From positions 75-64,074 of the forward strand of contig JASFHL010000007.1 in the NCBI GenBank assembly GCA_050123235.1: DNA of 64,000 nucleotides. Reading direction: 5' to 3'. This DNA is from Candidatus Woesebacteria bacterium (lineage in GTDB: Bacteria; Patescibacteriota; Microgenomatia; UBA1400; PJMF01). The position numbers and the translations under genes are program-made. Below the pieces are notes generated by a model. The model was not told where the DNA came from and searched no databases. It saw only the letters and a list, made by a program, of their open reading frames with translations. Below, in pieces: positions 15,100 to 43,241 of the stretch. Position 1 is the stretch's first letter, and every line of letters starts with the position of its first letter.

Positions 15100-15180
15100 A
15101 GTGATAGTATACAGTTGGTGAAGCTCGGTAGTAAATTGTCTGCTAACTCAAGCTTAGCCAGACCTCGCTTCAACGCTCTA
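15100..15180 (-). repeat. family-A hairpin repeat, copy A1 (truncated), abutting the smpB start codon
   Basis: Contains the core GTTGAAGCGAGGTCTGG...TTTACTACCGAGCTTCACC in minus orientation. Ends 1 nt before the smpB ATG. Confidence 0.7.
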
Positions 15181-15243
15181 AGATTCATCATATAGTAAAT
15201 TAAAATCAATAAATCAAAGGAACATTTAGTAAAATATTAGCTG

Positions 15244-17337
15244 TCACAACTCCATCTCATAGAGCAGTGATCCACTGACAGCAAAAATCTTATTTTTTTC
15301 TTTACTAATCACAAAATCAGTTACGCTCTTCAAGGAAAGGCTTTTCTTTTCACTAAAGTATTTACCATCCTTAGTTAAAGCTACCACTCTAAATTGATTT
15401 GCATCCAAAACATAGAGATATTCTAGTTCTTCGCTAGTAAAGATTTTTATTTTTGAATCAAAAGCATCAACTAAACCTTCGATATTAAATTCCACTTCAC
15501 TACCTTTGGAAAATTTTTTTATTTCTCCAGAATTAGTAGTTAGCCAGATAGAACCATCAATAGTCATTGAATCTATTTCTTCAAACTTAATGTCTTTTTT
15601 AGACACAAACCAACCAATTGCCTGACTCAAACCATCTTCACCTTGGCTGTAGCGATAGAGATTTCTTTTTTCTGGGTTAAGAATATAAAGATAGCTGTTG
15701 AATCTGCCAAAAATATTACCAGCCCTATCTGAGTCTCCTTCCTCTTTCAGAACTGTTATCTTTTTACTGCCTAAATCAATTTGGCGAATACCATTGCCAA
15801 GTAAATAAATTTTATTTTCGCCCAAAACTACATCCACTAATTTATCAGCATCTTCTACATTAAAGACCTCATGTTCTTTGTTATCCAAATTGATAACAAT
15901 AATTTGTTTTTTACCAGTATCCAAAAAGGCTAATTTTTCCTTGTTAATCGCGATTTTGGAACTGACAAAATTAGATTCAATATTTCTTAAGTCAACGAAA
16001 ACAGTCAATTCGTCAAATTCTTGTCTGCCTGATATTTCCTGATAAAAATCTTTAGCGGCTGAAAGTTCTTTTTGGATTTCTTTGAGTGATCGTTTTTTTT
16101 GCTCTTTTGCTTTAGCCAAGTTTTCTAAATTTTCAATAGCAAGAGTTAATTTTTCTCTAGCAGTAATCGGATCTTGCTCTGCAATGTCTTTAGCTTCAGC
16201 AATCATTTGCACAAAGGGATTAATTTCTTCTCTGATAGCATTTAGTTCTTTGTTGACCTTCATCCTCCAGACAACAATTAAAGTCGAGCCAACAATGATA
16301 AAAACTAAGATCGAAAACAGCACTTTAGCGATTTTTTTTGATGAATATTTGCTGACATAAGTTTCTTTGGAAGATAGATTCTGTTTCAGGAAATCACTAC
16401 CCTTTTGTAGAATTTTTTGGCTTAATTTAAGACTTTTAAGAACAGTGTTTTTACTGCCACTTAGGCCGCGTTTAATAAGTACGCTGGCAGATTTAAGAAA
16501 TTTTTTAAATTGAAAATTTGGCCTTTTTTTAGAAATATTGCTAGTTGTTTGAGTAGGGGCAAAGTTATCTATTATTTCTAAATCAGGATCTGCAATGCTT
16601 TCTTCTTGCCAGTCAAGTTCATTTTGTTTTTTTACTTTGTTTTTTTGCTTGAAAATATCATCTGCTGCTTGCTCTAGCACGTTATCAGTATTTAAACTTT
16701 GTTCTAATCTTTCTGCTTCAGTATCAATTTCTAAACTAAAATCTAGATTCTTTGTTTTTTCAACTTTTTCTTCACTTAATTTTTGGTAGACAAAGCTCAG
16801 CGCAGACAATGATGAATTTGCTTGAGCATGGATGGCCGGCACAATTGAGGTAATCACAGTTTCCAGCTCAAACCCTTGATTTAGTTTTTGTTTGATTTCT
16901 TCTAAAAATTTAAATACTTGATGAGTAGTGAGGAGAAGCACATCCTCTTTTTTAAATTCACCTTGGATGATTTTAATTCTATTAGTACTGGAAAGTATCT
17001 TGCCAATTTTATCGCCTCTTTTAAGGGTAATACTACCGTTATATGTGAGAAAGAAGGCCTGTCCTTCTTGAGGAAAAAAAGCTGCTGACAATTGTAATTG
17101 GCAGTTATTATCTCTGAGATTTTTGATAGAACTTAAAAGCAGCTGATGAAGAGCGGCCGCACTAGCATTAGCAGGAGTTTGTTTGAGTTGTTGACTGAAA
17201 TCTTTGCCAATGTTTTTTGCATTTTTTCCAGCTATGGAAAAAGCACAGATCAGGTTGCCAGCCTCATTTGCAGTTATTTGAGACCAACCATTAGCAAGTG
17301 GCAGGCCAATCAGGGGTGTTGACTGCACTCTTGGCAT
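15244..17337 (-). CDS. large membrane-anchored protein: N-terminal cytoplasmic domain, coiled-coil, single TM, C-terminal extracytoplasmic beta-rich domain
   Basis: 697-aa ORF. The TM is 'VLFSILVFIIVGSTLIVVW' and there is an E/K-rich helical region. No catalytic motif recognised. Confidence 0.45.
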   Translation of the reverse strand: MPRVQSTPLIGLPLANGWSQITANEAGNLICAFSIAGKNAKNIGKDFSQQLKQTPANASAAALHQLLLSSIKNLRDNNCQLQLSAAFFPQEGQAFFLTYNGSITLKRGDKIGKILSSTNRIKIIQGEFKKEDVLLLTTHQVFKFLEEIKQKLNQGFELETVITSIVPAIHAQANSSLSALSFVYQKLSEEKVEKTKNLDFSLEIDTEAERLEQSLNTDNVLEQAADDIFKQKNKVKKQNELDWQEESIADPDLEIIDNFAPTQTTSNISKKRPNFQFKKFLKSASVLIKRGLSGSKNTVLKSLKLSQKILQKGSDFLKQNLSSKETYVSKYSSKKIAKVLFSILVFIIVGSTLIVVWRMKVNKELNAIREEINPFVQMIAEAKDIAEQDPITAREKLTLAIENLENLAKAKEQKKRSLKEIQKELSAAKDFYQEISGRQEFDELTVFVDLRNIESNFVSSKIAINKEKLAFLDTGKKQIIVINLDNKEHEVFNVEDADKLVDVVLGENKIYLLGNGIRQIDLGSKKITVLKEEGDSDRAGNIFGRFNSYLYILNPEKRNLYRYSQGEDGLSQAIGWFVSKKDIKFEEIDSMTIDGSIWLTTNSGEIKKFSKGSEVEFNIEGLVDAFDSKIKIFTSEELEYLYVLDANQFRVVALTKDGKYFSEKKSLSLKSVTDFVISKEKNKIFAVSGSLLYEMEL

Positions 17338-17452
17338 AGGGCTATTGTATCATAAGCGAGTTTGGAGGATTTTAGTGGAGTTATACCTTAGATCTTAAAA
17401 TAGTGATAATTATAATTTAAATAATCTTAAGTCTGCTAAAATACTATAATTA

Positions 17453-18541
17453 ATGATCATTTTAAATACAAAAGACACCAGTCAAGCAGAAATAATTGAA
17501 CAAGCGGTAGCTGTTTTAAAAAAAGGCGGTTTAGTGATTTATCCTACAGAGACCGTGTATGGGGCCGGGGTAGACGTCAGCAATCAGGCGGCAGTGAATA
17601 AGTTATTGCAGTACAAGTCACGTCGAGAAGGAAAGCCTTTGTCAGTGGCAGTCACTGATCAAAAAATGGCTGAAAAATATGTAGAGATTAATAAGCAAGC
17701 CAAAAAATTATATAAACAATTTTTACCTGGGCCAATGACAATCATTTCTAAAGGCAAAGATACAGTGGCGGCTGGAGTTGAATCTGAATTTGGAACTTTA
17801 GGAATTAGAATTCCTGATTATGATTTGATTTTGAAAATAGTAGCAAAATTAGGCAGAGGGATTACTGCTACTTCTGCTAATGCCTCTGGTAAAAAAAGAC
17901 CCTATACAGTAGCAGATATTTTAAATAATCTTTCAGCAAAGCAGAAAAACTTGATAGATTTAATTATTGATGCTGGCAAATTAGCGCCTAATCCACCCTC
18001 TACAGTGATTGATACCACTTTATCTACTCCTACTATTTTACGAAAAGGCAAGACTAAGCTTGTTGGTTCTGATGAAAAAAGCACTCAACTTAAATCAGAA
18101 TCAGAAAAGATGACTAAAGAAATTGCCGGTCGAATTATGCTCAAATACTGGGATCGAATTAAAAAAACAGCTTTGATTTTAGGCTTAGATGGTCAATTAG
18201 GAGCTGGTAAAACAATTTTTACCAAAGGTGTGGCTGAATTTCTTAAAATCAAAGAAACTATCAGTTCCCCAACTTATACTTATCTCAATGAATATGACTT
18301 TAAAAGATACCAAACAAAAGGGAAACTCTACCACTTTGACATGTGGAAAGTAGATTCAGAAAAGGAGTTGACTTTGTTTGAGATAGATAAGTTAGTTAGA
18401 CCTAATAATGTCTTGGTGATCGAGTGGTGGGATCAGATTGCTGGCTTTTTAGCTAATAAGAGATATGCAATTATTAAAATAAATATTGATGTATTAGATA
18501 AAGAAAATAGGGAGTTGATAATTACTGAAAAATTTTCATAA
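17453..18541 (+). CDS. fused TsaC (YrdC, L-threonylcarbamoyladenylate synthase) and TsaE (P-loop ATPase) t6A biosynthesis protein
   Basis: N-terminus 'VIYPTETVYGAGVDVSNQAAVNKLLQYKSR' is the YrdC fold. C-terminus has the TsaE motifs 'LGLDGQLGAGKTIFTKG', 'SPTYTYLNEY' and 'YHFDMWKV'. Confidence 0.75.
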   Translation: MIILNTKDTSQAEIIEQAVAVLKKGGLVIYPTETVYGAGVDVSNQAAVNKLLQYKSRREGKPLSVAVTDQKMAEKYVEINKQAKKLYKQFLPGPMTIISKGKDTVAAGVESEFGTLGIRIPDYDLILKIVAKLGRGITATSANASGKKRPYTVADILNNLSAKQKNLIDLIIDAGKLAPNPPSTVIDTTLSTPTILRKGKTKLVGSDEKSTQLKSESEKMTKEIAGRIMLKYWDRIKKTALILGLDGQLGAGKTIFTKGVAEFLKIKETISSPTYTYLNEYDFKRYQTKGKLYHFDMWKVDSEKELTLFEIDKLVRPNNVLVIEWWDQIAGFLANKRYAIIKINIDVLDKENRELIITEKFS

Positions 18542-18614
18542 TTCAGAGAAGCTGCTGATAAGGTCAGATTAGATTAATAAAATATCAACTTATTTAAGTG
18601 ATTTTTAGAAAAAA

Positions 18615-18768
18615 CATTAGTATATATAAATCTTGACCGTTGAAGCGAGGTCTGATTAGGATTGACCTAGATCTTTATATACTACCGAGCTTCACCGAGT
18701 GAGCTTTGTATCTTATAAAACAGAAGAAATATTTCTGCGAACGTGTTCAAGATTTATGTATAGTAATG
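18615..18768 (+). repeat. family-A repeat, copy A2 (about 154 bp, 24-bp imperfect TIRs)
   Basis: TIRs are CATTAGTATATATAAATCTTGACC and GTTCAAGATTTATGTATAGTAATG. Carries the conserved core and the GCGAACG...ATTTAT 3' module. Lies between tsaCE and tsaD. Confidence 0.7.
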
Positions 18769-18819
18769 TTTTGGATGCTGAACTTTACATGAACTCGTCT
18801 GATATTTTATTAATTAATT

Positions 18820-20058
18820 ATGACCAATCTACTACCTCTCATCCTCGCCATCGACACTTCTTGTGATGATACTTCAGTCGCTATTACTCAAGGTCAAGTA
18901 GTCTTGGCCAATGTCATTTCCTCTCAAACTCAGCTACACAAACCTTATGGAGGAGTTTTTCCTACTATAGCTAAGCAAGCTCATAAAGAAAATATTGATG
19001 CAGCTATTAAAATAGCTCTTAAGCGTGCTAGTCTTACAATAGGTAAAATTGATGCTTTTGCGGTAACCATAGGTCCAGGTTTGGCACCAGCTCTGGAAGT
19101 TGGCATTGCTAAAGCAAAAGCTTTAGCCAAATTAGATCAAAAACTTTTAATAGCCATCAACCACACAGAAGGGCATATTTTATCGGTTTTGGCTCAAAGG
19201 AAATCCAGAACTGGCAGGCAAGGTTTGGAGCAAAAAGTCAAAACCACAGCTCGAAAGTCAACAACAGGAGTAAGAAAAACAAATTTATCCCAAGCAAAAA
19301 GCATCCACCCTCTTCCGACAGAAAAATTTCCAGCCCTAGCCATTGTAGTTTCAGGGGGTCACAGTCAATTTATTCTGGTCAAAAATATTGGCGATTATCA
19401 GATTTTAGGTTCCACTATCGATGATGCTGCTGGAGAATGTTTAGACAAAGTAGGCCGAATGCTCAATCTAGGTTATCCTGCTGGGCCAGTAATAGAAGAA
19501 TTTGCCAAAAAAGGCAATGCAAAAAAGTTTGAATTTCCTTTACCAATGACTACTATTAAAAATTTTAATTTAAGTTTTTCTGGTCTTAAAACTTATGCTA
19601 GCAATTTGATTAGGCAATTAGAGGCAGCAGGCAAACTAAACAAACAAGCAATTTATGATATTTCTGCCTCTTTTCAAAGAGCTGTATTTAAACATATTGC
19701 TTATAAATTGGACAAGATTCTTAAAGCAGAAACAAGTCTACTCCAAAGCGAAAAATATTTTCAAGAAATCTGGTTGGGTGGAGGGGTCAGTGCCAATATT
19801 AGTTTAAGAAAAATGATTCGTGAGACAATAAAAAACTATCTTAGTTCTACTGATAAGTCACTTTTAAAATTAGAACAAGATAGAGAAAAATTAATGAGTT
19901 CCCAGAAGCGGAAACTCAGGCTCAAAGTTCCTTTCTCAAAAAAATTATGTAGTGATAATGCTGCTATGATTGGCATAGCTGCTTTTTATAAATATCAACA
20001 AGCTGAATTTGTCGACAAAATAGATCAGTTAGAAAGAAAACCAAGATTCTTAGTTTAG
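18820..20058 (+). CDS. tsaD: tRNA N6-adenosine threonylcarbamoyltransferase TsaD (Kae1/YgjD family) with basic insertion
   Basis: 'ILAIDTSCDDTSVAI' and the metal-binding 'NHTEGH', plus 'VSGGHS' and 'SGGVSAN'. An R/K-rich insert of about 40 aa is absent from canonical TsaD. Confidence 0.8.
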   Translation: MTNLLPLILAIDTSCDDTSVAITQGQVVLANVISSQTQLHKPYGGVFPTIAKQAHKENIDAAIKIALKRASLTIGKIDAFAVTIGPGLAPALEVGIAKAKALAKLDQKLLIAINHTEGHILSVLAQRKSRTGRQGLEQKVKTTARKSTTGVRKTNLSQAKSIHPLPTEKFPALAIVVSGGHSQFILVKNIGDYQILGSTIDDAAGECLDKVGRMLNLGYPAGPVIEEFAKKGNAKKFEFPLPMTTIKNFNLSFSGLKTYASNLIRQLEAAGKLNKQAIYDISASFQRAVFKHIAYKLDKILKAETSLLQSEKYFQEIWLGGGVSANISLRKMIRETIKNYLSSTDKSLLKLEQDREKLMSSQKRKLRLKVPFSKKLCSDNAAMIGIAAFYKYQQAEFVDKIDQLERKPRFLV

Positions 20059-20457: not shown

Positions 20458-22073
20458 CAATGTCTCGTTATGGTCATTTAAAAATCATTTTCTATTTGCT
20501 AACTACTTTTTTTGTATTTGTTATTTTGCTTCTTTTTTTTCAACCTTTTTATAATTTAAATAATAAAATTAATGATTTATTTTATAGCTCTACAAATCAG
20601 AAATCAGAAATTGTAATTGTAGCTATCGATGATTTATCCTTGCAAACAGTACAAGCTTGGCCATGGTCAGCTGAAAAGCAAGCTGAGTTAATTAATATTA
20701 TCAAAGAGCAGCATCCCAAATTGATTGCCTATGCAGCAAGCTATCCTAGCCCAGATGTAGAAGAACAAGTAGTTTTAAGTAAATTGAATGAAATTGATAA
20801 TCTAGTGATGAGCAAGGTAAATAATTTTTATTTAGGACCAAAGGGTCATCTAGATTTAGAAAAATCCTCAGATGGAAAAGTAAGACAGATTTTAACTGAA
20901 AAAAACCTATTTCCTTCATTTTCACTTGTCAGTGCCGAAGTTTTGAACTATACCATGACTGAAACACATTTAAATATCAATTATCGATTTAAAACTGGCA
21001 GCCTATTACAATTATCTGCTCAAGATATTTTTTCAGGCAGGAATTTAATTAAACTTAAAGATAAAATTGTTTTGATTGATTTAGTGAATGCTGATTCCAG
21101 TATGGATGTAGAAACGCCTTTAGGTTTAATGAAGCCAATTGAGGTTCAGGCAAATGCAATTGATACAGTTTTGAGTTTGAGAGCCTTACGCAAATTACCA
21201 AAAAGTCAAGAAACAATTATTGCTCTTTTTTTAGCAATTTTACCTCTTTTTCTTGCTAAATTTATTCGCATTAAACAATGGCTTGGTTCAGCAATTTTCC
21301 TTTTATTAGGGATTGTTTTAATTGCTTTCCTAGCTTTTAGATTCTTTTATATTATTACACCTGTTTTTTATTGGTTACTGCTAATTTTATTTGGAGTTTT
21401 ATTAGCTATTTTTATTAAGTGGAAATTAAAAAATCTAACTCAAGTTCTTCTGAAAAAAATTTTTGGCAACACTGTTTCTCCAGAAGTGCTAAGCACTTTG
21501 TTAAAGAATCCAGAAAAAGTATCTTTGCAAGGTGAGAAACTTGAGTTAACTGTTTTGTTTGTAAGAATCAAAAATTTCAGTGATTTTGTAGAAAAAAATG
21601 ATGCTAAAACAACAGTGTCTAAATTAAAGAATTTTTTAGAAACTTGCACAGACATTGTTATTAGTCACCAAGGTACAATTGATAAATACTCAAGAAATAC
21701 AATAATAGCTTTTTGGGGAGCGCCACTATCAGATAAGCAACAGGCTAGTAAGGCTTGTGTGACTGCTTTAGAGATTCAAGATCGTATTGGGGAAGAAAGT
21801 CAACTTGAGCTAAGTATTGGCATCAGCTATGGGCTAGCAACTGTTGCTAGTTTGGAACTTGAAGGTTTAGATTATTCAGCCATTGGTGAAACAGTGGATC
21901 AAGCAATTATGCTTGAATCTGCTACTCAGGAACTAAAACAGACAATGCTTGTTTCTGAAAGCGTAGTTAAGAAGAACAAAGAAGAAAATAGTGATTTTAG
22001 ATTTACAAAACTTAAGGCAATTAAAGTGGAAGGAAGTAGAAAGTCTGTTAAAGCTTATGGATTAGAGGGATAG
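20454..22073 (+). CDS. CHASE2 sensor domain - class III nucleotidyl cyclase (degenerate motifs)
   Basis: N-terminal TM, then the CHASE2 signature 'VIVAIDDLSLQ...WPWS', then three TM helices. C-terminal cyclase-like 'LTVLFVRIKNFSDF...IAFWGAPL'. Confidence 0.55.
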   Translation: MTMSRYGHLKIIFYLLTTFFVFVILLLFFQPFYNLNNKINDLFYSSTNQKSEIVIVAIDDLSLQTVQAWPWSAEKQAELINIIKEQHPKLIAYAASYPSPDVEEQVVLSKLNEIDNLVMSKVNNFYLGPKGHLDLEKSSDGKVRQILTEKNLFPSFSLVSAEVLNYTMTETHLNINYRFKTGSLLQLSAQDIFSGRNLIKLKDKIVLIDLVNADSSMDVETPLGLMKPIEVQANAIDTVLSLRALRKLPKSQETIIALFLAILPLFLAKFIRIKQWLGSAIFLLLGIVLIAFLAFRFFYIITPVFYWLLLILFGVLLAIFIKWKLKNLTQVLLKKIFGNTVSPEVLSTLLKNPEKVSLQGEKLELTVLFVRIKNFSDFVEKNDAKTTVSKLKNFLETCTDIVISHQGTIDKYSRNTIIAFWGAPLSDKQQASKACVTALEIQDRIGEESQLELSIGISYGLATVASLELEGLDYSAIGETVDQAIMLESATQELKQTMLVSESVVKKNKEENSDFRFTKLKAIKVEGSRKSVKAYGLEG

Positions 22074-22109
22074 TTGATGGGTTTTTTTGAGAAAATATGA
22101 TTACATAAT

Positions 22110-22263
22110 CTTAATATTTAATTAATTTGAGAGTCGTTCGCGGCAGCATTTCGTTTATTTTTAAGATGCAAGGCTCACTGGTGAAGCTCGGCAGTAAATT
22201 GATTACTTGATCAAGACCGAACCAGACCTCGCTTCAACACTCTCAAATTAATTAAATATTAAG
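22110..22263 (-). repeat. family-A repeat, copy A3 (154 bp, 24-bp perfect TIRs CTTAATATTTAATTAATTTGAGAG)
   Basis: Perfect inverted repeat at 22110-22133 and 22240-22263. The conserved core and the GCGAACGACTC module lie between them. Confidence 0.75.
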
Positions 22264-22325
22264 ATTATTTGATCGACTCTTTCAAAATAAAACCCATCTA
22301 ACATCCTTATAACCGCAATCCGTGG

Positions 22326-22363
22326 TTGACAGATTTTTAGCAGTCTTTTAAGATATCTGCTAG
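22326..22363 (+). promoter_or_regulatory. sigma70-like promoter (TTGACA-N17-TAAGAT) overlapped by a CIRCE-like HrcA operator
   Basis: TTGACA at 22326-22331. TTAGCAGTC-TTTTAAGAT-ATCTGCTAG at 22337-22363. Located upstream of groES. Confidence 0.6.
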
Positions 22364-22724: not shown

Positions 22725-24389
<1,665 letters not shown>

Positions 24390-25054: not shown

Positions 25055-25141
25055 ACAATAAATGTAAGTCTTTAGAGCGCGAAGCTTCACTTCTTAGATT
25101 AGTGGAACTTTACTAGGATTGTTTTAAAATGTAGCAGAGGT

Positions 25142-25215
25142 GGGATTTGAACCCACGACCTTCGGTTTATGAATCCGATGCTCTAACCAACTGAGCTACC
25201 CTGCCAAGTAAAACG
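25142..25215 (-). tRNA. tRNA with CAU anticodon (Met elongator or Ile2-lysidine type)
   Basis: Reverse complement reads GGCAGGGTAGCTCAGTTGGTTAGAGCA-TCGGA-TTCATAA-ACCGA-AGGTC-GTGGGTTCAAATCCCAC-CTCTGC. D and T arms are canonical and the anticodon loop is TT-CAT-AA. G1:C72 means it is not an initiator. CCA is not encoded. Confidence 0.8.
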
Positions 25216-25357
25216 AGTTAGAATTTTTATAAGTCGCTTATTAGCTTAACTGCAAACATGCAGATCGCTTAGATTAAATTCAACGTCCTTGATTATATCA
25301 GACTACTTGGGGTATAATAAACCCCTCTTTATATCTCTTTAGGAAAATATAAAAGAC

Positions 25358-25425
25358 GCGCGGGATAGTGTACGGTGCACGTGAGGCTCATAATCTTACA
25401 GGCTAGGTTCGACTCCTAGTCCCGC
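25358..25425 (+). other. tRNA-like sequence with CAU anticodon loop (possible second tRNA, or an att-site tRNA remnant)
   Basis: CGCGGGA...TCCCGCA acceptor with a C1:A72 mismatch. T arm CTAGG-TTCGACT-CCTAG. Anticodon arm TGAGG-CTCATAA-TCTTA. The D loop is short (5 nt). It abuts or overlaps the 3' end of the serine recombinase gene. Confidence 0.35.
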
Positions 25426-27176
25426 AACAATGAGGGAATGAGAGGTTGTAGATAGGTTAATTTGTCCTCTACATCCATCAATTTTCCAGGTTCGACCGAA
25501 ATACCTAAGTCTTTTGCTTCTTGCTTGCATTTTTCTATCATCCAAAATGGGTTATCCCGATTTATCAACACTTTTTTATTATGTAGCTTTAGGTTCGACC
25601 CAAGCATCTGAAGTATTTGAGTCTTAGTTTTAACATCACCTTGAGCAAACCAATAACGGGCATAGCAGGCAAACTCGAAAGTTTTTTTTGATATTTCAAT
25701 CCAATCATATTGCCTTTGGTCCGTTGTTTGCATATCATTTTTTACTGTCTCAATTTCTTTTTTAAGTTTACTGAGTTCTGCCTCATAAGCTTCTTTCTCT
25801 TCTTCACTGGATTCTTCATATAGATCAGTAAAGCGGTGCTTTGTCATCCTTCTAAGCCTGGATTTGAGCTTCTCGTAGTTGGTAGTATTTCGTTTAGTAG
25901 CATCCTGGTCCTGGTCCACTTCTTTGTCATTTAATTCACTTATGTGATTAATAGCCCAATCTTTGAAGTCAGGATCAATCTCGAATTTTTTTAACTCATT
26001 GTCAATTTGTTCTTCAAGCTTTCCTATTTCTAAATATCCTTGAGAACAATTTTTATTGACCTTTTTGGTGCAGTGATAGTAGATGTAATGGAGAATAGTG
26101 GGGTTTTTCATCAATTCTATTTTCAAACCACACTTAATACACCTATCTCTTTTCCTTGTTTTAGCAAATTTTTTGCTACATTTTGGACAAATTATTTGCC
26201 ATTTTTCCTCAGCAGTGATAAAACCACCACATTCACCACAAGTCATAATCCCTTTATAGGGAAAATCATATTTTTTTTGTATCGAGCGGCTTTTTTTACC
26301 TAGTCTAATCTGGATAATATCCCATTCATCTTTAGTAAACATTTTTGGGTATTTATGTTCACTTTCTTGGGTTACGCCTTCGATCTTTCTACTCATAACT
26401 CCATAATAAAAAGGGTCAGATAAAAGTCTGTAATAAGTTGATCTTGAAAGCGGTCCATCTCCTTGTTTTCTTTGAGGTAGGGTCCTGTATCCCATATCAT
26501 TATTGAGCCAGTTTAAACTTTCTAAAACGGTCATTTCACCGCTAATTATTTTTTTTCCAGCCTGTTGTAGCAAAGAAAATCTTTTTTGATCTACTTTAAC
26601 ATCGCGTTTTTTGGTAAAAGGATGAGTAAAATTAATAAATCCTTGCTTAGCTGGACCACCCCATTCTTTATTCTCAAAAAATTTATACTTATTTCCACTA
26701 TGAACATGGTCCGAAAGCTTAGTTGATTCATACTGTGATTGACTCAAGGCAAACTGGAGCAGCAAAATACCTTCGGCACTGTTATCAAATGTATAAGTGG
26801 CAAACTTAATATCTAGAATCTTTTTATCTGCTATGAGTTGCACGATTTTTCCTGCCTCAGTGGGGTTCCTTGAGAGTCTATTAGGGTGAAATACAATTAA
26901 GCCTGTTACTTTGCCTGCCTCAATTAAGTTAATCAATTTATTAAACTCGGGACGGTTGTCTGGTTTATAAGCACTTTTGCTTTCTGATAGATGATAACTT
27001 CTCTTATATTCTTTTTTTGGGAAACGTTTTGCTAGTTCTTGTCTCTGGCGAGGTATTGAGACATTCTGCTTATTAGATTTTTCATCTGATGAACGCCTGC
27101 TATATTCTGCCCAGATAATTTTATTTGGTGTGATGTTTATTCTTGGCATATAAAAACCCTCTCTGGGTGGACTCAA
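25416..27176 (-). CDS. large serine recombinase (phage-integrase type)
   Basis: N-terminal resolvase catalytic motif 'AEYSRRSSDEKSNKQ' (nucleophile Ser). Followed by a recombinase domain and a zinc ribbon 'CGECGG...CPKCSKKF', then a coiled-coil C-terminus. Confidence 0.8.
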   Translation of the reverse strand: MSPPREGFYMPRINITPNKIIWAEYSRRSSDEKSNKQNVSIPRQRQELAKRFPKKEYKRSYHLSESKSAYKPDNRPEFNKLINLIEAGKVTGLIVFHPNRLSRNPTEAGKIVQLIADKKILDIKFATYTFDNSAEGILLLQFALSQSQYESTKLSDHVHSGNKYKFFENKEWGGPAKQGFINFTHPFTKKRDVKVDQKRFSLLQQAGKKIISGEMTVLESLNWLNNDMGYRTLPQRKQGDGPLSRSTYYRLLSDPFYYGVMSRKIEGVTQESEHKYPKMFTKDEWDIIQIRLGKKSRSIQKKYDFPYKGIMTCGECGGFITAEEKWQIICPKCSKKFAKTRKRDRCIKCGLKIELMKNPTILHYIYYHCTKKVNKNCSQGYLEIGKLEEQIDNELKKFEIDPDFKDWAINHISELNDKEVDQDQDATKRNTTNYEKLKSRLRRMTKHRFTDLYEESSEEEKEAYEAELSKLKKEIETVKNDMQTTDQRQYDWIEISKKTFEFACYARYWFAQGDVKTKTQILQMLGSNLKLHNKKVLINRDNPFWMIEKCKQEAKDLGISVEPGKLMDVEDKLTYLQPLIPSLLRD

Positions 27177-27250
27177 ATCAAACTAATGACTTGTCCCAAA
27201 GAGGGTATTTATAGTCACTAGTTTAAGATTGAGTCCATAATCATTTTATA

Positions 27251-27439
27251 CTAATTTTCATTACTAAGTTGATTTAAAATATCTTGGTCCTCAATTGGGA
27301 TTGGTTTATAAATTAGAGCGAATCGCTTTAATTCCTTTAAAGCCATAACTTGAGCTTCTTCATAATCAAGCCATACACCGCATTTCTTTTGGTAAAGTTT
27401 TTGAAAGCTGGTGATGGCTTCGTGGCTTAGTTGCATCAC
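27251..27439 (-). CDS. hypothetical small protein
   Basis: 62-aa ORF in the same orientation as the recombinase block. Confidence 0.3.
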   Translation of the reverse strand: MMQLSHEAITSFQKLYQKKCGVWLDYEEAQVMALKELKRFALIYKPIPIEDQDILNQLSNEN

Positions 27440-28092
27440 AGAATAGTCCTTTCATCTGCTGTAATGTGTTCATCAAGCCATTTCATGTCTTCTGGTGGTA
27501 AATACTGGAAACCTTCTTCCTTATGAATGCGTTGGTAATCAGCCATAGTTCTTTGGTTTCCAACGGGGAGTGTGGTAACCACAGGGCTATTAACTTTAGA
27601 GTTAACCTTAGAGGAATTTAGAGTTCTAGGAGAATCAATCTCGAGGCAATTACGAACGGTTTGTTCAAAAGATTGAACTTTTGCTTCAGTTATTTGAAAA
27701 TTAGGTGCAATATTTTGAATAATTTGTTCAAACGATTGATTTAGTTCTTTTTGCTGAAATTGACTAGCTTGACCACCCCATTTTTTAGTTGTGGCTATAT
27801 ATCTTTCAGCATTGAAAATCTCATAAGTCTGTGGTTCTTGTGTAGGAATTAAAATACCTAAGGTTGTTAACTTAGTTATTTTTGTCCTAATTGAATTTGT
27901 GGAGCTATACCCTAAACAGGAGGCAAACTGTTTAAAATCTATTTTTACCTTTTTATATTGGCTATTTCTTGAATCAAACCCCATTTGATCAAGGCATAAC
28001 TCAAAAATAATAAATTCCTCTCTAGTTAAAATTTCGTGTTTTACCAGGAGAAAGCGGTTGCGATGAGAGGGGCGATAAGCATTGAAATTCAT
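27436..28092 (-). CDS. hypothetical protein with N-terminal winged-helix-like region (element replication/regulation candidate)
   Basis: 218 aa. No catalytic motif. Overlapping stop/start couplings with its neighbours suggest an operon. Confidence 0.35.
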   Translation of the reverse strand: MNFNAYRPSHRNRFLLVKHEILTREEFIIFELCLDQMGFDSRNSQYKKVKIDFKQFASCLGYSSTNSIRTKITKLTTLGILIPTQEPQTYEIFNAERYIATTKKWGGQASQFQQKELNQSFEQIIQNIAPNFQITEAKVQSFEQTVRNCLEIDSPRTLNSSKVNSKVNSPVVTTLPVGNQRTMADYQRIHKEEGFQYLPPEDMKWLDEHITADERTIL

Positions 28093-28358
28093 TACACCCC
28101 TTCATTAAATGCCTCCCAGGCAATCATGAAGTCAGTTAAGGTTCTATAATTACCTTCATTAATTGCTTGAACTGTTTCACCAAAATTAGTTAAAATTTTT
28201 CCATAATTGATTTTTAGGTAAAAAAAATCGACTTCTGAGATTTTTGCTTGCTTAACTTTATAAAGAATTCGTCTTCTTTTTTTGGAAAAGTAGTGCTTAA
28301 CCCTTCCATCTTTAAAAAAGATTTTTAGTTGATATCTCTTGGGTTTTTGAATTTTCAT
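28092..28358 (-). CDS. hypothetical small basic protein
   Basis: 88 aa, basic, first gene of the leftward block. Confidence 0.3.
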   Translation of the reverse strand: MKIQKPKRYQLKIFFKDGRVKHYFSKKRRRILYKVKQAKISEVDFFYLKINYGKILTNFGETVQAINEGNYRTLTDFMIAWEAFNEGV

Positions 28359-28383
28359 AAAAAAACTCCTTAGTAACTCCAGG

Positions 28384-28465
28384 TACGGAGTGTGACCTAG
28401 AGTTGCTAAAGAGTTTTTATCACTCCGTTTTTAGGCAAAAAAAAACCACGCAAAAAATTGCGTGG
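28384..28465. terminator. divergent-block hairpins
   Basis: CGGAGTG...CACTCCG+TTTTT on the plus strand. On the minus strand, a 9-nt A-run followed by CCACGCA-aaaaat-TGCGTGG gives a hairpin with a downstream T-run. Confidence 0.4.
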
Positions 28466-37509: not shown

Positions 37510-38541
37510 ATGAAACGGCAACACAATTTTCTCCTGATTGATGCTCATGCTGTTATCTACCGAGCTTTTTATGCCTTTCCCAAACAATTAACCGATCCTC
37601 AAGGGCAAATGGTCAATGCTGTCTATGGTTTTTCTAGAATTATTCTCACTGCCATCCGCAAATTTGAACCTGAATACATGGCGATTGCCTTTGATCATCC
37701 TAAGCCTACTTTTAGACATAAAGAATTTGATGCGTATAAAGCTCATCGGCCAGAAATGCCTGACGAGCTCAAGCCACAGATTGAGATAATCAAAAAGGTA
37801 GTGGAAGCTCTTAATATTCCTCAATATGAGATAGAAGGTTATGAGGCTGATGATTTAATTGGGACCATCAGTTTGCAGATAGATCAAGCAGTGGCTGCTA
37901 AAAACAAAAAAGCAAATTCAAAGCCAGCAGCTTTAAAAACTCTTTTATCACTTTTGACAATTATTGTGACAGGAGACCATGATACTTTTCAGCTAGTAGA
38001 TCAGAACACTCATGTTTGGTTGCCAGGCAGAGGAAAAAGACAACAGGATACAGAATATGATGCAGAAAAAGTAGAGGAGAAAATTGGGCTTAGACCAGAA
38101 CAAGTAATTGACCTAAAAGCGCTCATGGGAGATCCCTCAGATAACATTCCTGGTATTAAGGGCGTTGGGCCTAAGACTGCTGTAAAATTGATCAAGGAAT
38201 TTGGCAATATAGAAGAAATTTATCAGTTTATTGAAAATATGACTGATTATGGTCAAGTTAAGAAAGCTAAAAAGGCTAAGTCCGATAAAGCTACTCCAGC
38301 TTTCCTTAAAGGTTCCTTACTAAAAAAATTAAAAATAGGTAAAGAAGACGCTTTTTTAAGTAAGAAATTGGCAACAATTGATAGTCATGTCCCTCTGAAA
38401 TTCGATTTAGAAACCTGCAGAGTAAGCAGTTATGATAAAACCAAAGCAGTGGCTATATTTAAAAAATTAGATTTTAAATCTCTGATTCGTCTTTTACCAG
38501 ATGATGCTTTTGAAAGAGATTTACAAGAAGCATTATTTTAA
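37510..38541 (+). CDS. stand-alone 5'-3' exonuclease / flap endonuclease (Pol I N-terminal domain homologue)
   Basis: 'LLIDAHAVIYRAFYAF', acidic clusters, and H3TH 'GIKGVGPKTAVKLIKEFG'. No polymerase domain. Confidence 0.8.
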   Translation: MKRQHNFLLIDAHAVIYRAFYAFPKQLTDPQGQMVNAVYGFSRIILTAIRKFEPEYMAIAFDHPKPTFRHKEFDAYKAHRPEMPDELKPQIEIIKKVVEALNIPQYEIEGYEADDLIGTISLQIDQAVAAKNKKANSKPAALKTLLSLLTIIVTGDHDTFQLVDQNTHVWLPGRGKRQQDTEYDAEKVEEKIGLRPEQVIDLKALMGDPSDNIPGIKGVGPKTAVKLIKEFGNIEEIYQFIENMTDYGQVKKAKKAKSDKATPAFLKGSLLKKLKIGKEDAFLSKKLATIDSHVPLKFDLETCRVSSYDKTKAVAIFKKLDFKSLIRLLPDDAFERDLQEALF

Positions 38542-38547
38542 ATCAAT

Positions 38548-39768
38548 ATGAAAAAGAAATTTAAAAAAACATTGAAAGTTGCCCTAGTTCATGATTTTTT
38601 GCGTGAATATGGCGGAGCAGAGCGTGTCTTAGAAGCTTTACATGAGATTTTTCCTAAAGCACCAGTTTATACTGCTTTTTTTGACAAAAAAGCCCTTGGT
38701 ATCCATTGGCAGGTTTTTAAAGATTGGGATCTACGTCAAACTTGGTTAAGTAAAATTCCTTTAATTAAAAAGATTTATTCTCCATTGCGTTTCTTAGCAC
38801 CTAAAGCTTTTGCTGATTTAGATTTATCTGATTTTGATTTAGTAATTTCCTCTTCTAATGCTTTTGAAGCAAAAGCAGTCTTGAGTAAGAACCGAGCTAT
38901 TTATAATGATGCCAGCACTCATGATCGTAAGCCTGTTCATATCTGTTATTGCCACACTCCGCCGCGAGCACTTTATGGCTATTCAACGATGTCATCTTGG
39001 AAAAAGAATCCAGTAATTCATTTTTTCGGTAATTTGATCAATCATTATATGAGAATAATTGATTATCAGCTGGCGCAAAAAGTTGACTATTTTATTGCTA
39101 ATTCAGAAGAAGTAAAAAAGAGAATTAAAAAGTTTTATCGTCGAGACTCAACAGTGATTAATCCTCCAGTCAATGTAGAAAAAAATTTTGAATTAGTAAA
39201 AAAATTGCGAGCCAATCTCAAACAAAAACAACTAAGTTCAAAAACTGAGAAAAAAATACAAGACTATTATCTTTTTATTTCTCGCCTTGGTTTGCAAAAA
39301 CATCCAGAATTAGCAGTACAGGCTTGTAAGCAACTAGAACTACCATTAAAGCTGGCAGGCACTGGTCAAATGCTAAGAAGTTTGAAAGAAATAGCTGGCC
39401 CTACGATTGAGTTTTTAGGGGCAGTCACTGAGCAGGAATTAGTTGAACTTTATCTTGGAGCTAAAGCCCTTTTGTATCCAGTAGAGGATGAAGATTTTGG
39501 AATTGTACCAGTAGAAGCAATGGCCTATGGATTGCCAGTGATTGCTCATCGATCTGGAGGGCCGCAAGAGACAATTTTAGAAGGCAAAACAGGTTTGTTT
39601 TTTAATGAGTTAAATGTAAAGTCTCTGATTGCATCAATTAAAAAATTTGAAAAATCAGATCATGAAAAATTCAATCCCCAAAGAATTCATCAGCATGCTT
39701 CACAGTTTAATAAAAGAAATTTTCAAAAGAAAATTTTGGCATTTATGAATAGAATTATTGAGAAATAA
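38548..39768 (+). CDS. GT4-family glycosyltransferase
   Basis: C-terminal EX7E region 'EDFGIVPVEAMAYGLPVIAHRSGGPQE'. Confidence 0.7.
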   Translation: MKKKFKKTLKVALVHDFLREYGGAERVLEALHEIFPKAPVYTAFFDKKALGIHWQVFKDWDLRQTWLSKIPLIKKIYSPLRFLAPKAFADLDLSDFDLVISSSNAFEAKAVLSKNRAIYNDASTHDRKPVHICYCHTPPRALYGYSTMSSWKKNPVIHFFGNLINHYMRIIDYQLAQKVDYFIANSEEVKKRIKKFYRRDSTVINPPVNVEKNFELVKKLRANLKQKQLSSKTEKKIQDYYLFISRLGLQKHPELAVQACKQLELPLKLAGTGQMLRSLKEIAGPTIEFLGAVTEQELVELYLGAKALLYPVEDEDFGIVPVEAMAYGLPVIAHRSGGPQETILEGKTGLFFNELNVKSLIASIKKFEKSDHEKFNPQRIHQHASQFNKRNFQKKILAFMNRIIEK

Positions 39769-39840
39769 AAATATGATAAAGTAATCTTGCTTTGGTTTGG
39801 CAGTGATCTTTTTAAAGTTTTTTAATTGCTCAACTAGAGA

Positions 39841-41355
39841 TTAGTTGACTTTCTCTAACTCCAGAAGCAAGACATCATTCACTCTCATATCTACCTGAGT
39901 GCCGATTCTACCATTAGCGCTTAAAATTTGCTGTCTGATTTCTTTTCCGTTAAGGAATTTATATTTTAAATTATAAGTTCCCATGTCTAAGTTAATAAAA
40001 GTGATAGGCACAATTTCTTTATGAGTCACTGCAGGATCAAAGTTAACTACTATCAGCACAATTTTACCTCCCTTATCTTTTGCTGCTATGGCTTTAATGT
40101 ATTGATTTTGGCCACTGAGTTTTAATTCTTCATCACCCAGGGAGTTAAGCATTCTAAGAGCATAAAAGCGAGGCTTGGCTTGATTTTCTGAATCTATTAT
40201 GCCCCAGCGTCCCCATTTGGTTTGGCCGTCAGGATTCTCACCATCCTGAATTTCAAAAATCAAAGCTTCCCTAATATTGTTGACCATTACAATGGATGTA
40301 GCTACTGTATGAGCAGCGCCATAATATGAATCATAGCCAGGATGATTTTCACTATCATGCCCCCATTCAGTGATATGTAATTCCAAACTACTTTGTAAGT
40401 CAGGATATTCTTTGCTCCAAGATTGAGCTTTTTTCATATCTTCTTCAAAATCTTCCAGGGAATGGCTGTAACGGTGCCAAGAAAAGAAATCTAGTCTTAG
40501 ATTGTTAGCTCTGGCGTGTTTTACTAAAGCATCAAACCAGCTTTTATAAAGACCAGTAGTAGCTGGACCTCCAAATTTAAAGTCTTCAACGCCTTTGGCA
40601 TTAGCAGCCCCTTTAGCTGCATGAGTGTAAAGCTCCAGGTAATTTTTATCACCTTGATAATCCCAGTCGCCAAAATGATCAGGTTCATTCCAAACTTCGT
40701 AATAAACATCTTTAATTTTTTTAGTTCCAGAAATATGTTCAATGCTGCGCTGCACTGTATATTGCCAATCTTCCCAGCGTTTTGGTTTATTAACCACATC
40801 TCCATCGGCAATTACAGGTGGCATATATCCAAGAGAAATATACGGCTTGGCACCACTAGCTAAAATATCATCTAGGATGAGATCAAATTTAGTCCAATCA
40901 AATTCCAAATTACCAGGTTCTCCTTTAACTATTTCATAAAAGTCATAAATATGGTCAATTCTGATATATTTTGGTTTTAAGGTTTTAACTTGGCTCAATA
41001 TTGGTTGCAATCGCCATTCTTTATCTTCTCCTCCTTGAGATAGATCTTGCCAAGGGCGTTGTAGAGGCCCGACCACAGAGCCAGTATCAATGACTAAATT
41101 GGCTGGCTGGCTGGCTAAAGCTGAGTCATCGATATCACTTTCACCTAGCACTTGCCTATGAGAACTAAGCCATTGAAAAATGCCAAAAGTGACTAAGAAC
41201 ATGGCTGTTATCACGAAACTAGCCACCATGAATTTTGAAGTAAAAATTTTATCCAAATGTTTATTTTCAATCTTTTTTGTTAAAATTTTACCCAATTTGA
41301 TTTTTTTTGATTGTTTCAGAGCTTTAATTTTTAGCTTTTTATCCATAATATCCAC
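39841..41355 (-). CDS. membrane-anchored glycoside hydrolase, clan GH-A (GH5/GH39-like)
   Basis: N-terminal TM. The 'YYEVWNEPD' acid/base motif is typical of GH-A (beta/alpha)8 hydrolases. Confidence 0.5.
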   Translation of the reverse strand: MDIMDKKLKIKALKQSKKIKLGKILTKKIENKHLDKIFTSKFMVASFVITAMFLVTFGIFQWLSSHRQVLGESDIDDSALASQPANLVIDTGSVVGPLQRPWQDLSQGGEDKEWRLQPILSQVKTLKPKYIRIDHIYDFYEIVKGEPGNLEFDWTKFDLILDDILASGAKPYISLGYMPPVIADGDVVNKPKRWEDWQYTVQRSIEHISGTKKIKDVYYEVWNEPDHFGDWDYQGDKNYLELYTHAAKGAANAKGVEDFKFGGPATTGLYKSWFDALVKHARANNLRLDFFSWHRYSHSLEDFEEDMKKAQSWSKEYPDLQSSLELHITEWGHDSENHPGYDSYYGAAHTVATSIVMVNNIREALIFEIQDGENPDGQTKWGRWGIIDSENQAKPRFYALRMLNSLGDEELKLSGQNQYIKAIAAKDKGGKIVLIVVNFDPAVTHKEIVPITFINLDMGTYNLKYKFLNGKEIRQQILSANGRIGTQVDMRVNDVLLLELEKVN

Positions 41356-41449
41356 GATATCAAAATTTTTTTCTTAAAAGAAGTATTAATTACTAAATTA
41401 TTACTTTTTTAAATTTAAGGAGCTGGAAGTGAGTGGAGAGGACATTATT

Positions 41450-41513
41450 GTACACAAATCTTGATCGTTGAAGCGAGGTTGGGCTTATTTGTATTATAGA
41501 TTAGTATTTTAAT
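41450..41513 (+). repeat. family-A repeat fragment A5 (left TIR and 5' core only)
   Basis: ACAAATCTTGATCGTTGAAGCGAGG matches the left end of A2. It is truncated where B1 begins. Confidence 0.55.
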
Positions 41514-41671
41514 CACTTACATATATTATTAAACTAGGAACCTTGAAGTGAAGTCAAAAAAGATAAGAATAAGATATAAGTAAGGACTGAGCTTCAGAGA
41601 AGGAGCTCTGTAGTGATGATTTAGCAGCTAACTTACTGCGACTGTGTCCTAGTTTAATAATATATTAAGTG
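41514..41671 (+). repeat. family-B repeat, copy B1 (158 bp, ~26-bp TIRs CACTTAcATATATTATTAAACTAGGA)
   Basis: About 92% identical to B2 (50775-50931). TIRs are CACTTA...ACTAGGAAC and GTCCTAGT...TAAGTG. Confidence 0.75.
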
Positions 41672-41696
41672 AAGTATAATACTATTCTTAATCTGC

Positions 41697-41731
41697 TTGA
41701 CTTTTTAGCAGTCTATAAGATATATTGCTAG
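41697..41731 (+). promoter_or_regulatory. promoter (TTGACT -35) overlapped by a CIRCE-like operator upstream of hrcA
   Basis: TTGACT at 41697-41702. TTAGCAGTC-TATAAGATA-TATTGCTAG at 41705-41731. A -10-like ATATAT sits within the spacer. Confidence 0.55.
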
Positions 41732-41734
41732 CAA

Positions 41735-42454
41735 ATGATCGATCTTGTAGCTAGGCAAGTTCAAATTTTACGTGCCATTATTGAAGAATTTATCCAAACC
41801 GCTAAACCAGTTGGTTCTGAAACTATTGATAAAAAATATAACATTGGTGTTTCTCCAGCAACCATTCGCAACGAAATGGTTTATCTAACCAAACAAGGTT
41901 ATTTAAATAAAGCTCATACCAGCTCTGGTAGAGTACCTACGCCTTTGGCTCTAAAACTTTATGTTAATGAACTGATGAAAGAGAAGGAGCTATCAGTGGC
42001 AGATGAAGTTGGTGCTAAAGAGAAAATCTGGGAGAGCAGGAAAGAAGTAGATAGACTTTTGCATGAGTCGGCCAAGGTCCTAGCCAATAAAGCCAAAGCC
42101 TTAGGTTTGGCTATGACTGATGAACGTCGACTTTATCATGCTGGTTATGCCAACTTACTCCACATGCCTGAATTCTATGATATTAAAGTGATGCGCCATG
42201 TTTTGACCCTAATTGAAGAGGCTAGTCTGATGGAAGAAGTTTTTGAACAAGGAGCCAGTGAAAATCCTGTTCAATTAGTTTTTGGCCAGGAGTTAGGCAA
42301 CAAGCATTTGGAACCAATCAGTATTATTTACATTTCAGTTAATGCCGGTGGTCACCCTTGTAAAGTTGGAGTTTTGGGTTCCAACCGTTTTGATTATCCA
42401 TACTTAATTCCAATGATGAAATACTTCAAAGCTCTAATTGAAGAGATGGTGTAA
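41735..42454 (+). CDS. hrcA: heat-inducible transcription repressor HrcA (short form)
   Basis: 'LRAIIEEFIQTAKPVGSETI...VSPATIRNEMVYLTKQGYL...HTSSGRVPT' is the HrcA wHTH. Operon with grpE-dnaK and CIRCE. Confidence 0.8.
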   Translation: MIDLVARQVQILRAIIEEFIQTAKPVGSETIDKKYNIGVSPATIRNEMVYLTKQGYLNKAHTSSGRVPTPLALKLYVNELMKEKELSVADEVGAKEKIWESRKEVDRLLHESAKVLANKAKALGLAMTDERRLYHAGYANLLHMPEFYDIKVMRHVLTLIEEASLMEEVFEQGASENPVQLVFGQELGNKHLEPISIIYISVNAGGHPCKVGVLGSNRFDYPYLIPMMKYFKALIEEMV

Positions 42455-42968
42455 AATATTCCATATGAAAAAAGATCAAAGTAAGCATGCCAAAGTTAAA
42501 GTTACTGCTGCTAAAAATTCAACTTCAAAACAAAAGAAGTCAGAATTAGCTCAACTGAAATCTCTTTGCCAAGAATTACAAACAAAATTAACAGCTGCAG
42601 AAGAAAAAGAAAAGCGAACTTTAGCAGACTATCAAAATTTAATCAGGCGCAATCGTGAAGAAAGAGCAGCTCTGATTAAAATGGCAAACAAAGATTTACT
42701 ATCAGGATTATTACAAGCACTTGATAATCTTAGTCGCGCTAGTCAGGAAATTGATAATCCTGGACTTAATATGGTTATTAAGCAATTTTGGCAAAGCTTA
42801 AAAGAATTTGGTTTGGAAGAGATTGAAGTAATGGATCAAGAATTTGATGTCGATACTATGGAAGTGGTAGATAAAAAAGATAAAGCCAAAAAAGTAATTG
42901 CAGTGGTCAGCAAAGGTTATAAACTTAATGGTGAAGTCATACAACACGCCAAGGTAATTTTAGATTAA
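42438..42968 (+). CDS. grpE: nucleotide exchange factor GrpE
   Basis: Coiled-coil 'TLADYQNLIRRNREE' (the conserved DFxNYRKR region) and a C-terminal beta domain. The start may instead be Met 42465. Confidence 0.8.
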   Translation: MKRWCKIFHMKKDQSKHAKVKVTAAKNSTSKQKKSELAQLKSLCQELQTKLTAAEEKEKRTLADYQNLIRRNREERAALIKMANKDLLSGLLQALDNLSRASQEIDNPGLNMVIKQFWQSLKEFGLEEIEVMDQEFDVDTMEVVDKKDKAKKVIAVVSKGYKLNGEVIQHAKVILD

Positions 42969-43004
42969 TATTTCATGCTTTTTACTAAATTTAAAAATTC
43001 CTAC

Positions 43005-43040
43005 TTGCAAAAATTAGCAGTCTATGATTTACTCTGCTAA
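43005..43040 (+). promoter_or_regulatory. CIRCE-like operator with upstream -35-like TTGCAA, 250 nt upstream of dnaK
   Basis: TTAGCAGTC-TATGATTTA-CTCTGCTAA at 43014-43040. Confidence 0.55.
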
Positions 43041-43084
43041 TAGTCGTGATTGAATATAATAATAATTTATAAATTAGATTTTAA

Positions 43085-43241
43085 CATTTACTACAGATAA
43101 ATTTTGAAGCGTTGAAGTGAGGTCTGGCTAGGCTTGAAGTAGCAAGTAATTTACTACCGAACTTCACCGAGTGAGCCTTATGTTTAGAAAGATAACGAAA
43201 ATGTAGCAGCGAACGACTCCAAAATTTATCTGTAGTAAATG
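43085..43241 (+). repeat. family-A repeat, copy A4 (157 bp, 21-bp perfect TIRs CATTTACTACAGATAAATTTT) in the dnaK leader
   Basis: Perfect TIRs at 43085-43105 and 43221-43241. The core carries the compensatory pair GTTGAAGTGAGG / CCGAACTTCACC. Confidence 0.75.

Follow-up and report, generated by a model that had tools for sequence, protein, structure and literature searches.

The closest described counterparts of the repeats reported here are bcr1, ERIC and the Correia elements (CREE), all of them structured palindromic repeats of bacterial genomes. bcr1, found in the Bacillus cereus group, is a dispersed, intergenic repeat of ~155 bp whose presence varies between relatives and whose long, cruciform-like fold is kept by compensatory changes; it has been interpreted as a mobile element of the non-autonomous type (PMC3184786). 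CREE of Neisseria measure 100-160 bp, lie beside genes and consist of 26-bp inverted ends around a core; their transcripts form hairpins open to binding or cutting by RNase III, and they can act as a source of promoters (PMC2649163). ERIC (IRU, RU-1) is an imperfect palindrome of ~127 bp that occupies intergenic sites in either orientation, with larger variants arising by internal insertions (PMC3184786, PMC2759123). Here we describe two related families of dispersed palindromic repeats, A and B, in a stretch of 64,000 nt (hereafter, the window) from a low-GC (~34%), metagenome-assembled genome of Candidatus Woesebacteria, a member of the Candidate Phyla Radiation (CPR/Patescibacteria). We favour, with a probability of roughly 0.55, the reading that A and B form two branches of a single family of foldback (palindromic) mobile elements of 160-190 bp, non-autonomous and specific to this lineage.

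Families A and B resemble all three systems as structured palindromic repeats, and bcr1 in having long hairpins kept by compensatory changes, which bears out the earlier note on this DNA, where ERIC- and Correia-type elements had been put forward as analogues (PMC3184786, PMC2649163); they are not related to any of the three in sequence, and they are not classical miniature inverted-repeat transposable elements (MITEs). With bcr1 they share size, intergenic dispersal, variable presence and a compensated long fold, but bcr1 carries 5-bp direct flanking repeats and is conserved in sequence along the element, whereas A and B have no such duplication, show a neutral-like divergence of their arms and conserve only their internal stems. 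CREE are alike in size and in having 26-bp inverted ends around a core. In CREE, the inverted repeats have a conserved sequence and a TA is duplicated on insertion; in A and B, by comparison, the ends are variable, no TA duplication is seen and no IHF site was identified. ERIC is likewise an imperfect intergenic palindrome found in both orientations, and its internal insertions recall the nesting of B in A ends described below; ERIC is, however, highly conserved in sequence across species, while A and B belong to one lineage and have unconserved arms.

Copies of families A and B and their common fold

The elements are 154-191 bp long and without a conserved open reading frame (ORF). Five full and four partial copies of A and B together are found in the 64 kb, at a density of about one repeat per 9 kb, and make up less than 2% of the sequence, with six copies on the forward strand and two on the reverse (Table 1). 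Family A is represented by three full copies (A2, A3 and A4), a truncated one (A1) and end fragments. A pattern scan for its core, GTTGAAGNGAGG-N30-55-CCGANCTTCAC, matched at four places in the window, where 0 matches are expected by chance, and the A 5' arm occurs a fifth time at 41467-41483. The earlier note had counted four full A copies and a fragment at 41450-41513. The core is indeed present at four sites, but A1 keeps only its left arm and first hairpin, stopping at CTTCACC 17 nt 5' of the smpB ATG (at 15099), and the fragment is A-like only over ~41442-41487, the rest being the left arm of a family B copy. A right arm of A1 surviving inside smpB, where the covariance model of the family (R1) paired GACTATCAGATT, was rejected because this stretch encodes the SmpB N-terminal motif KFDYQI, which we take to be a conserved region of that protein. 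Searching the window with R1 returned no additional copies, the remaining matches being generic AT-rich hairpins, and the open antisense frames of A4 and A1, translated and searched against a protein database for copies mis-called as genes, gave 0 matches.

Family B aligns with A from end to end at 74% column identity, with a common geometry of 26-nt arms and a 107-nt core, and the B core, CTTGAAGYGAAGTC...GGACTGAGCTTCAG, is a homologous variant of that of A. Each full B copy is accompanied by pieces of A: an A 5' end stands 5' of B1, while at B2 a degenerate AAGCGAGG.GGG comes before the element and an A 3' end (GTAGCGAACGACTCTAAGATTTAT...) after it, so that two loci have the same A5'-B-A3' composite arrangement. 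The last ~10 codons (50715-50745) of the ORF at 48934-50745 overlap a degenerate A-type 5' segment, AAGCGAGGAGGG, and the C-terminus of its protein may be element-derived. Another long hairpin lies at 17-190 of the window, just upstream of the first gene, with 44-nt arms that are 80% complementary and an 86-nt centre; it scores 12 bits against R1, is not recognisably A or B in sequence, and may represent a third, decayed foldback family.

Table 1. Repeat copies, their parts and nearby operators, in window coordinates; R1 scores are those of the covariance model
Feature	Position	Strand	Remarks
A core matches	15118-15174, 18639-18695, 22181-22238, 43111-43167	-, +, -, +	pattern scan
A1, truncated	~15117-15202	-	R1 48.7 bits; left arm and P2 only, without P3 and right arm
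A2, full	18611-18772	+	R1 162.4 bits; arms 18611-18636 / 18747-18772
A2 outer repeat arms	18562-18587 (left), 18800-18825 (right)	.	
A3, full	22108-22265	-	R1 152.9 bits; arms perfect over 25-30 nt
A3 outer repeat arms	22062-22107 (left), 22266-22312 (right)	.	right arm is a diverged inverted copy of the left flank
A4, full	43084-43242	+	R1 162.3 bits
A4, P1 arms	43084-43109 / 43217-43242		
A4, P2 hairpin	43110-43169		tandem G.A
A4, P3	43171-43214		GUGAGC/GCGAAC
A 5' fragment	41442-41487	+	left arm plus GTTGAAGCGAGGTTGGG; directly abuts B1
A-type 3' end fragment	50951-50980	+	GTAGCGAACGACTCTAAGATTTATTGCTAT, immediately 3' of B2; partly CIRCE-like
B1, full	41498-41688	+	R1 142.4 bits; 42-nt arms; just upstream of hrcA promoter/CIRCE
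B2, full	50758-50948	+	R1 143.5 bits; ~90% identical to B1
B 3' fragment	8568-8607	+	P3 3' strand and right arm; fills the spacer between two minus-strand genes
CIRCE-like HrcA operator, groES	22337-22363		TTAGCAGTC-N9-nTCTGCTAr
CIRCE-like HrcA operator, hrcA	41705-41731		same pattern
CIRCE-like HrcA operator, dnaK	43014-43040		same pattern
CIRCE-like HrcA operator, dnaJ	59641-59667		same pattern

All full copies fit one fold, on which RNAalifold and the covariance model R1 agree and which comprises three helices: a closing stem (P1) of ~26 bp, made by the two arms, and two internal hairpins, P2 and P3. In P2, the helix UUGAAGY/RCUUCA is followed by a tandem G.A/A.G mismatch and by GGUC/(G/U)ACC, with a loop of ~32 nt; P3 is a shorter helix, GUGAGC/GCGAAC, again with a tandem G.A/A.G and a ~32-nt loop. 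The tandem mismatch is kept in six of six copies in P2 and in four of five in P3. A hammerhead-like reading of P2, built on its UGA-stem-GAA, was rejected, as these nucleotides pair within an uninterrupted helix and there is no CUGANGA/GAAA core.

Covariation was scored, as the earlier note had proposed, on a model-fitted alignment of six related sequences. Standard pairs occupy 95.3% of the cells, compared with 77.1% in column shuffles (none of 500 reaches the observed value), and pairing falls to 34-38% when partner columns are slid. Changes on both sides were found in 20 of the 39 pairs, 16 of them among the 24 pairs of P1. The compensatory C->T/G->A change that had been pointed out in A4 is real and corresponds to the double change from C-G to U-A at alignment pair 36/80; the comparison of A with B shows a switch from G-C to A-U at pair 39/77 and two-sided changes at the P3 pairs 90/181 and 91/180 as well. 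The earlier note had read selection on the structure from the single A4 change; structure-preserving covariation is indeed strong, but, on grounds given in the next section, an RNA hairpin in particular is not what the evidence indicates.

Arm divergence and proposed copying of the arms at the DNA level

Long inverted arms are present in each full copy, as had been claimed, and within a copy they are 92-100% complementary over 25-26 nt (A4, 25/26 or 96%; A2, 24/26 or 92%; A3, 30/30 or 100%). Between copies the picture is different. Identity among A2, A3 and A4 is 46-69% in the arms and 47-73% in the two loops, compared with 82-93% in the P2 stems and 93-100% in the junction and P3 stems. The arms are nevertheless not unrelated from copy to copy, as the earlier note had it: their inner 9-12 nt (AAATyTTGA) are common to the copies, and they fall into groups, A2 with the fragment at 41442 (0.71 identity) and A4 with A1 (0.65), so that they must be regarded as inherited yet fast-evolving. 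They drift at the rate of unconstrained sequence, both arms drifting together. The arm tips are the least conserved part of the element and the interior the most, and the arm boundaries are fuzzy, at 26 to 56 nt.

This pattern bears on whether the elements could be classical MITEs derived from an insertion sequence (IS) of the DDE type, with AAATyTTGA as the transposase binding site and the arm versions as subfamilies of different masters. Their size (<400 bp), terminal inverted repeats, lack of an ORF or transposase gene, fragments and multiple, dispersed intergenic copies agree with the definition of such elements (PMC3184786), and the arm sub-lineages agree with several masters. We nonetheless consider this origin rather improbable, given that the most conserved part is internal, that the termini are variable and without sharp boundaries, that no IS or transposase is encoded in the 64 kb, and that none of the five full copies has a target-site duplication. 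The earlier note had likewise found no duplication and set the elements apart from classical MITEs; reading the flanks of A2, A3, A4, B1 and B2 by eye, we saw no direct target-site duplication at any boundary, those of A2 and A3 being inverted instead.

The two internal hairpins raise a further alternative, that of a single-strand element of the HUH/Y1 type, kin to the palindrome-associated elements of IS200/IS605 or to REP/RAYT, with P2 as the left-end and P3 as the right-end hairpin, both recognised on one DNA strand. In its favour are the strand-specific mismatches, the absence of target duplications and the presence, on one strand and in direct orientation, of two imperfect hairpins that resemble each other (GYGAGG..CCGARC and GUGAGC..GCGAAC). 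Against this, the IS200/IS605 and REP/RAYT families have no long terminal inverted repeats, such as the 26-56-nt arms seen here, and their hairpin loops are of 3-6 nt rather than ~32 nt; moreover, no shared motif or conserved tetranucleotide stands beside the ends (TTTTA, AGAAA, ATTTT, AGAGG), neither a Y1 transposase nor a tnpA, tnpB or RAYT gene occurs in the window, and the orientation of the copies is not bound to one strand (six forward against two reverse). Of the explanations considered, we hold this one to be the least probable.

Several features of the stems argue against an explanation specific to RNA. G.U pairs are few and not in excess, with five G.U against four A.C in 195 pairs, and covariation in the arms consists mostly of AU<->UA flips, whereas RNA helices typically change by way of G.U pairs. 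Taken by themselves, the 107-nt cores have no stability beyond that of their dinucleotide shuffles (z between -1.4 and 0). In addition, two copies are enclosed by palindromes that reach into the host sequence. The outer inverted repeat of A2 (p<0.001) has its right arm in the tsaD 5' untranslated region (UTR) and ATG, and in A3 the last codons and stop of a CHASE2-cyclase gene (22062-22094) pair with 22280-22312 (p<0.001), while the flanks of A4, B1 and B2 have no significant inverted complementarity. In both A2 and A3, the coding, original flank is on the 3' side of the element and the inverted copy on its 5' side. These flanks have no significant similarity to any element, on which account we rejected the idea that A2 and A3 are nested inside older A or B copies; being neither A- nor B-like, they were therefore not inherited with the element or from a master copy, and they speak for a process acting on DNA by which inverted copies are made around these hairpins. 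On the right of A4 (43233-43274), TAAATGT is directly repeated 22 nt farther out, and the outer repeat (TAAATGTTAAAA) is the inverted complement of the left A4 junction (TTTTA and the arm tip), which suggests a small duplication or an earlier, longer arm.

A process of this kind is known in Escherichia coli and Salmonella, where quasipalindrome template-switch correction perfects imperfect inverted repeats and can copy flanks in inverted form. Such a mechanism would explain both the perfect, copy-specific arms and the palindromic flanks of A2 and A3; it is described for short repeats with small loops, and would here have to act across a 107-nt spacer. In the foldback element that we favour, the protein that moves or binds the element would recognise the conserved interior by its sequence, and the arms would matter solely as a stem. 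The complementarity of this stem would be maintained in the DNA through hairpin-templated copying, in the form of snap-back or template-switch synthesis when DNA is transposed or replicated, through selection for a foldable intermediate, or through both. Hairpin-templated copying would occasionally extend the palindrome into adjacent host DNA. Transcription into long hairpins would be incidental, occurring where a copy had inserted into a transcribed spacer such as the dnaK 5' UTR. A bolder proposal, which we hold to be improbable but worth stating, is a structure-recognised mobile element of CPR bacteria of an undescribed kind, in which a protein reads the three-way junction with its two tandem-GA hairpins on one strand and P1 is regenerated by snap-back synthesis. 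If so, the arms would drift freely, no target duplication would form and host DNA would sometimes be copied inverted; such an element might prefer hairpin-forming sites such as promoters with a CIRCE (controlling inverted repeat of chaperone expression).

Distribution among relatives, gene context and a possible role as RNA

The DnaK of this genome and a hypothetical protein of 697 aa are identical to Candidatus Woesebacteria entries at NCBI and JGI. The nearest other matches to this DnaK are just 82% identical in protein comparison, and the hypothetical protein adjoining smpB has its best homologue at no more than 36% identity, so that no close relative was at hand for comparison. A comparison of orthologous loci, as the earlier note had suggested, was therefore made with more distant genomes. 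R1, run with filters off over ~133 kb of relatives' DNA surrounding the orthologues of dnaK and smpB (L023-L030), found 0 copies; this set takes in L028, which is from the source organism itself, and has one dnaK locus in duplicate. Inverted repeats of at least 20 nt, searched for in L023, L024 and L029, are missing from L023 and L029 and amount to two weak, AT-rich ones in L024, as compared with at least eight strong, long inverted repeats in the window. The corresponding spacers of the relatives are short: that between grpE and dnaK has 49 nt in L023 and 189 nt in L024 (325 nt in the window), the X-smpB spacer has 64 nt in L029 (144 nt), and the one upstream of hrcA has 41 nt in L023 and 92 nt in L024 (380 nt).

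An independent Logan assembly from this same organism (SRR11698124) is base-for-base identical to the window and extends 74 nt beyond its left edge. Four of its eight contig ends lie inside element cores, at 15159 (A1), 18702 and 18678 (A2) and 41574 (B1). At these breaks, no other copy in the window shares a 31-mer with A1 or A2, and further near-identical, closely related copies are thus probably present elsewhere in the genome. In the collections searched, the family found no match outside this genome. Rfam 15 covariance models at the gathering threshold detected just two tRNAs in the window, and local E-value searches returned only noise at E>0.1; blastn against plasmid and phage records gave 0 matches; and when public collections of genomes, metagenomes and viruses were scanned for the core pattern, chance matches alone turned up, single ones in GC-rich or coding contexts and without the rest of the element, which were rejected.

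Within the window, A4 lies between the dnaK CIRCE/promoter (43005-43040) and the dnaK ATG (43293). By analogy with hrcA and groES, the dnaK promoter is predicted to be TTGCAA-17-TTTACT at 43005, which would place A4 in the dnaK 5' UTR. A2 occupies the spacer between tsaCE and tsaD. A3, in turn, is antisense to both of its neighbours, with the stop of the CHASE2-cyclase gene on one side and the groES promoter/CIRCE on the other, and the A 5' fragment and B1 are upstream of the hrcA promoter/CIRCE, so that the earlier assertion that all copies sit in 5' leaders or operon-internal spacers does not hold. At both groES and hrcA, the CIRCE overlaps a sigma-70-like promoter. The elements are not themselves CIRCE (TTAGCACTC-N9-GAGTGCTAA), as the four CIRCE-like sites of the window are separate from them; an A or B element stands within 70 nt of three of the four (hypergeometric estimate of ~p=0.005, in which spacer length is a confounder). 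A stretch of 18 nt on the 3' side of B2 agrees with the hrcA CIRCE region at 16 of its positions (p<0.003), but a derivation of the A 3' end from CIRCE was rejected, the similarity not being significant for A2, A3, A4, B1 and B2.

These positions lend some attraction to the possibility that the family is a functional, transcribed and structured RNA, either cis-regulatory or a small RNA, whose junction with tandem-GA helices binds a protein, whose P1 is a stem for RNase III-type processing or stability, and whose copies regulate the adjacent heat-shock and housekeeping genes. Part of what supports it also counts against our own interpretation. The sense strand folds better than the antisense strand, by 3-12 kcal/mol, in all five full copies, the tandem G.A mismatches are present on the sense strand only, and, of six copies or fragments at transcribed sites, four have the sense orientation; such strand-specific features would fit an RNA role as well. 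The strong conservation of P2 and P3 beside loops that have diverged by 30-50% needs purifying selection, acting per copy or on master lineages. The covariation counts rest on few related copies (five full ones) from one 64-kb window, and the alignment behind them is itself fitted to the model. Flank palindromy is seen at just two copies, A2 and A3. Mobility is deduced from distant relatives, with 82% DnaK identity and no empty site seen in a close strain, and no transposase or recombinase partner is seen in the window: of the only two recombinases that it encodes, one is Xer-like, of the tyrosine type, and has a syntenic counterpart in relatives, and the other, a serine recombinase, belongs to an integrated element unrelated to the repeats.

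An RNA role gains further from the conserved tandem G.A mismatches, from the combination of covarying helices with a conserved junction sequence, which is the usual pattern of RNAs, from the likely place of A4 in the dnaK 5' UTR, from the outer stem of A2, which covers the tsaD start codon, and from the proximity to CIRCE sites. We still judge it unlikely. The family is absent from the sampled relatives, syntenic sites included; A3 is antisense, and both A3 and B1 lie upstream of promoters; truncated and composite copies occur; G.U pairs are not in excess, the core is no stabler than its shuffles, and Rfam holds no match. Truncated and composite copies, both orientations and the absence from relatives fit mobile DNA better than a regulatory RNA family, and it is on these, together with the palindromic flanks and the conserved interior, that we infer mobility, copying of the arms at the DNA level and recognition of the core.

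Neighbouring genes and possible consequences for the organism

Some of the genes beside the elements have features of their own. smpB and hrcA appear near-leaderless, with -10-like hexamers ending 6 nt (smpB, 15106-15135, reverse strand) and 8 nt (hrcA, 41697-41735, forward strand) before the ATG; the smpB -35 (TTTACT) is inside A1, which may, judging from sequence, supply part of the smpB promoter. The genes for t6A synthesis on either side of A2 are fused, TsaC(Sua5) and TsaE forming one ORF (17453-18541) and a TsaB-like N-terminal domain and TsaD the next (18820-20058). A stretch of ~14.5 kb (45255-59786) separates dnaK from dnaJ, which in relatives are adjacent (L024) or one gene apart (L023). 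It holds a toxin-antitoxin pair of the Phd/YafQ type, a GT2 glycosyltransferase, a YfhO-like membrane protein and B2, as well as several large proteins without a Pfam match. Two adjacent large ORFs without a Pfam match, 51003-52679 and 52698-54269, have a 105-nt direct repeat in common (51384-51488 and 53082-53186, 73% identity) and are probably tandem paralogues.

The region at 25131-28420 is a probable integrated element, encoding a large serine recombinase (25416-27176, reverse strand), a weakly Rep3_N-like protein (27436-28092, reverse strand) and small ORFs. Two tRNA-Met genes lie beside it, one at 25131-25205 (reverse strand, 71 bits) and one of 70 nt at 25359-25428 (forward strand, 43 bits), the latter overlapping the start of the recombinase, and a palindrome with 24-nt arms is found at 28361-28418.

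The repeats break short-read assemblies of this organism's genome, and, being in or beside heat-shock operons (in the predicted dnaK 5' UTR and in the hrcA and groES promoter regions) and forming a stem over the tsaD start, they may alter the expression of these genes. CPR genomes are small, and if A and B are foldback elements as we propose, they would be a useful case for the persistence of selfish palindromic DNA in such a genome. Their arms, complementary yet diverging in a neutral-like manner, would furthermore provide a clean system in which to separate selection on structure from hairpin-templated copying of DNA.

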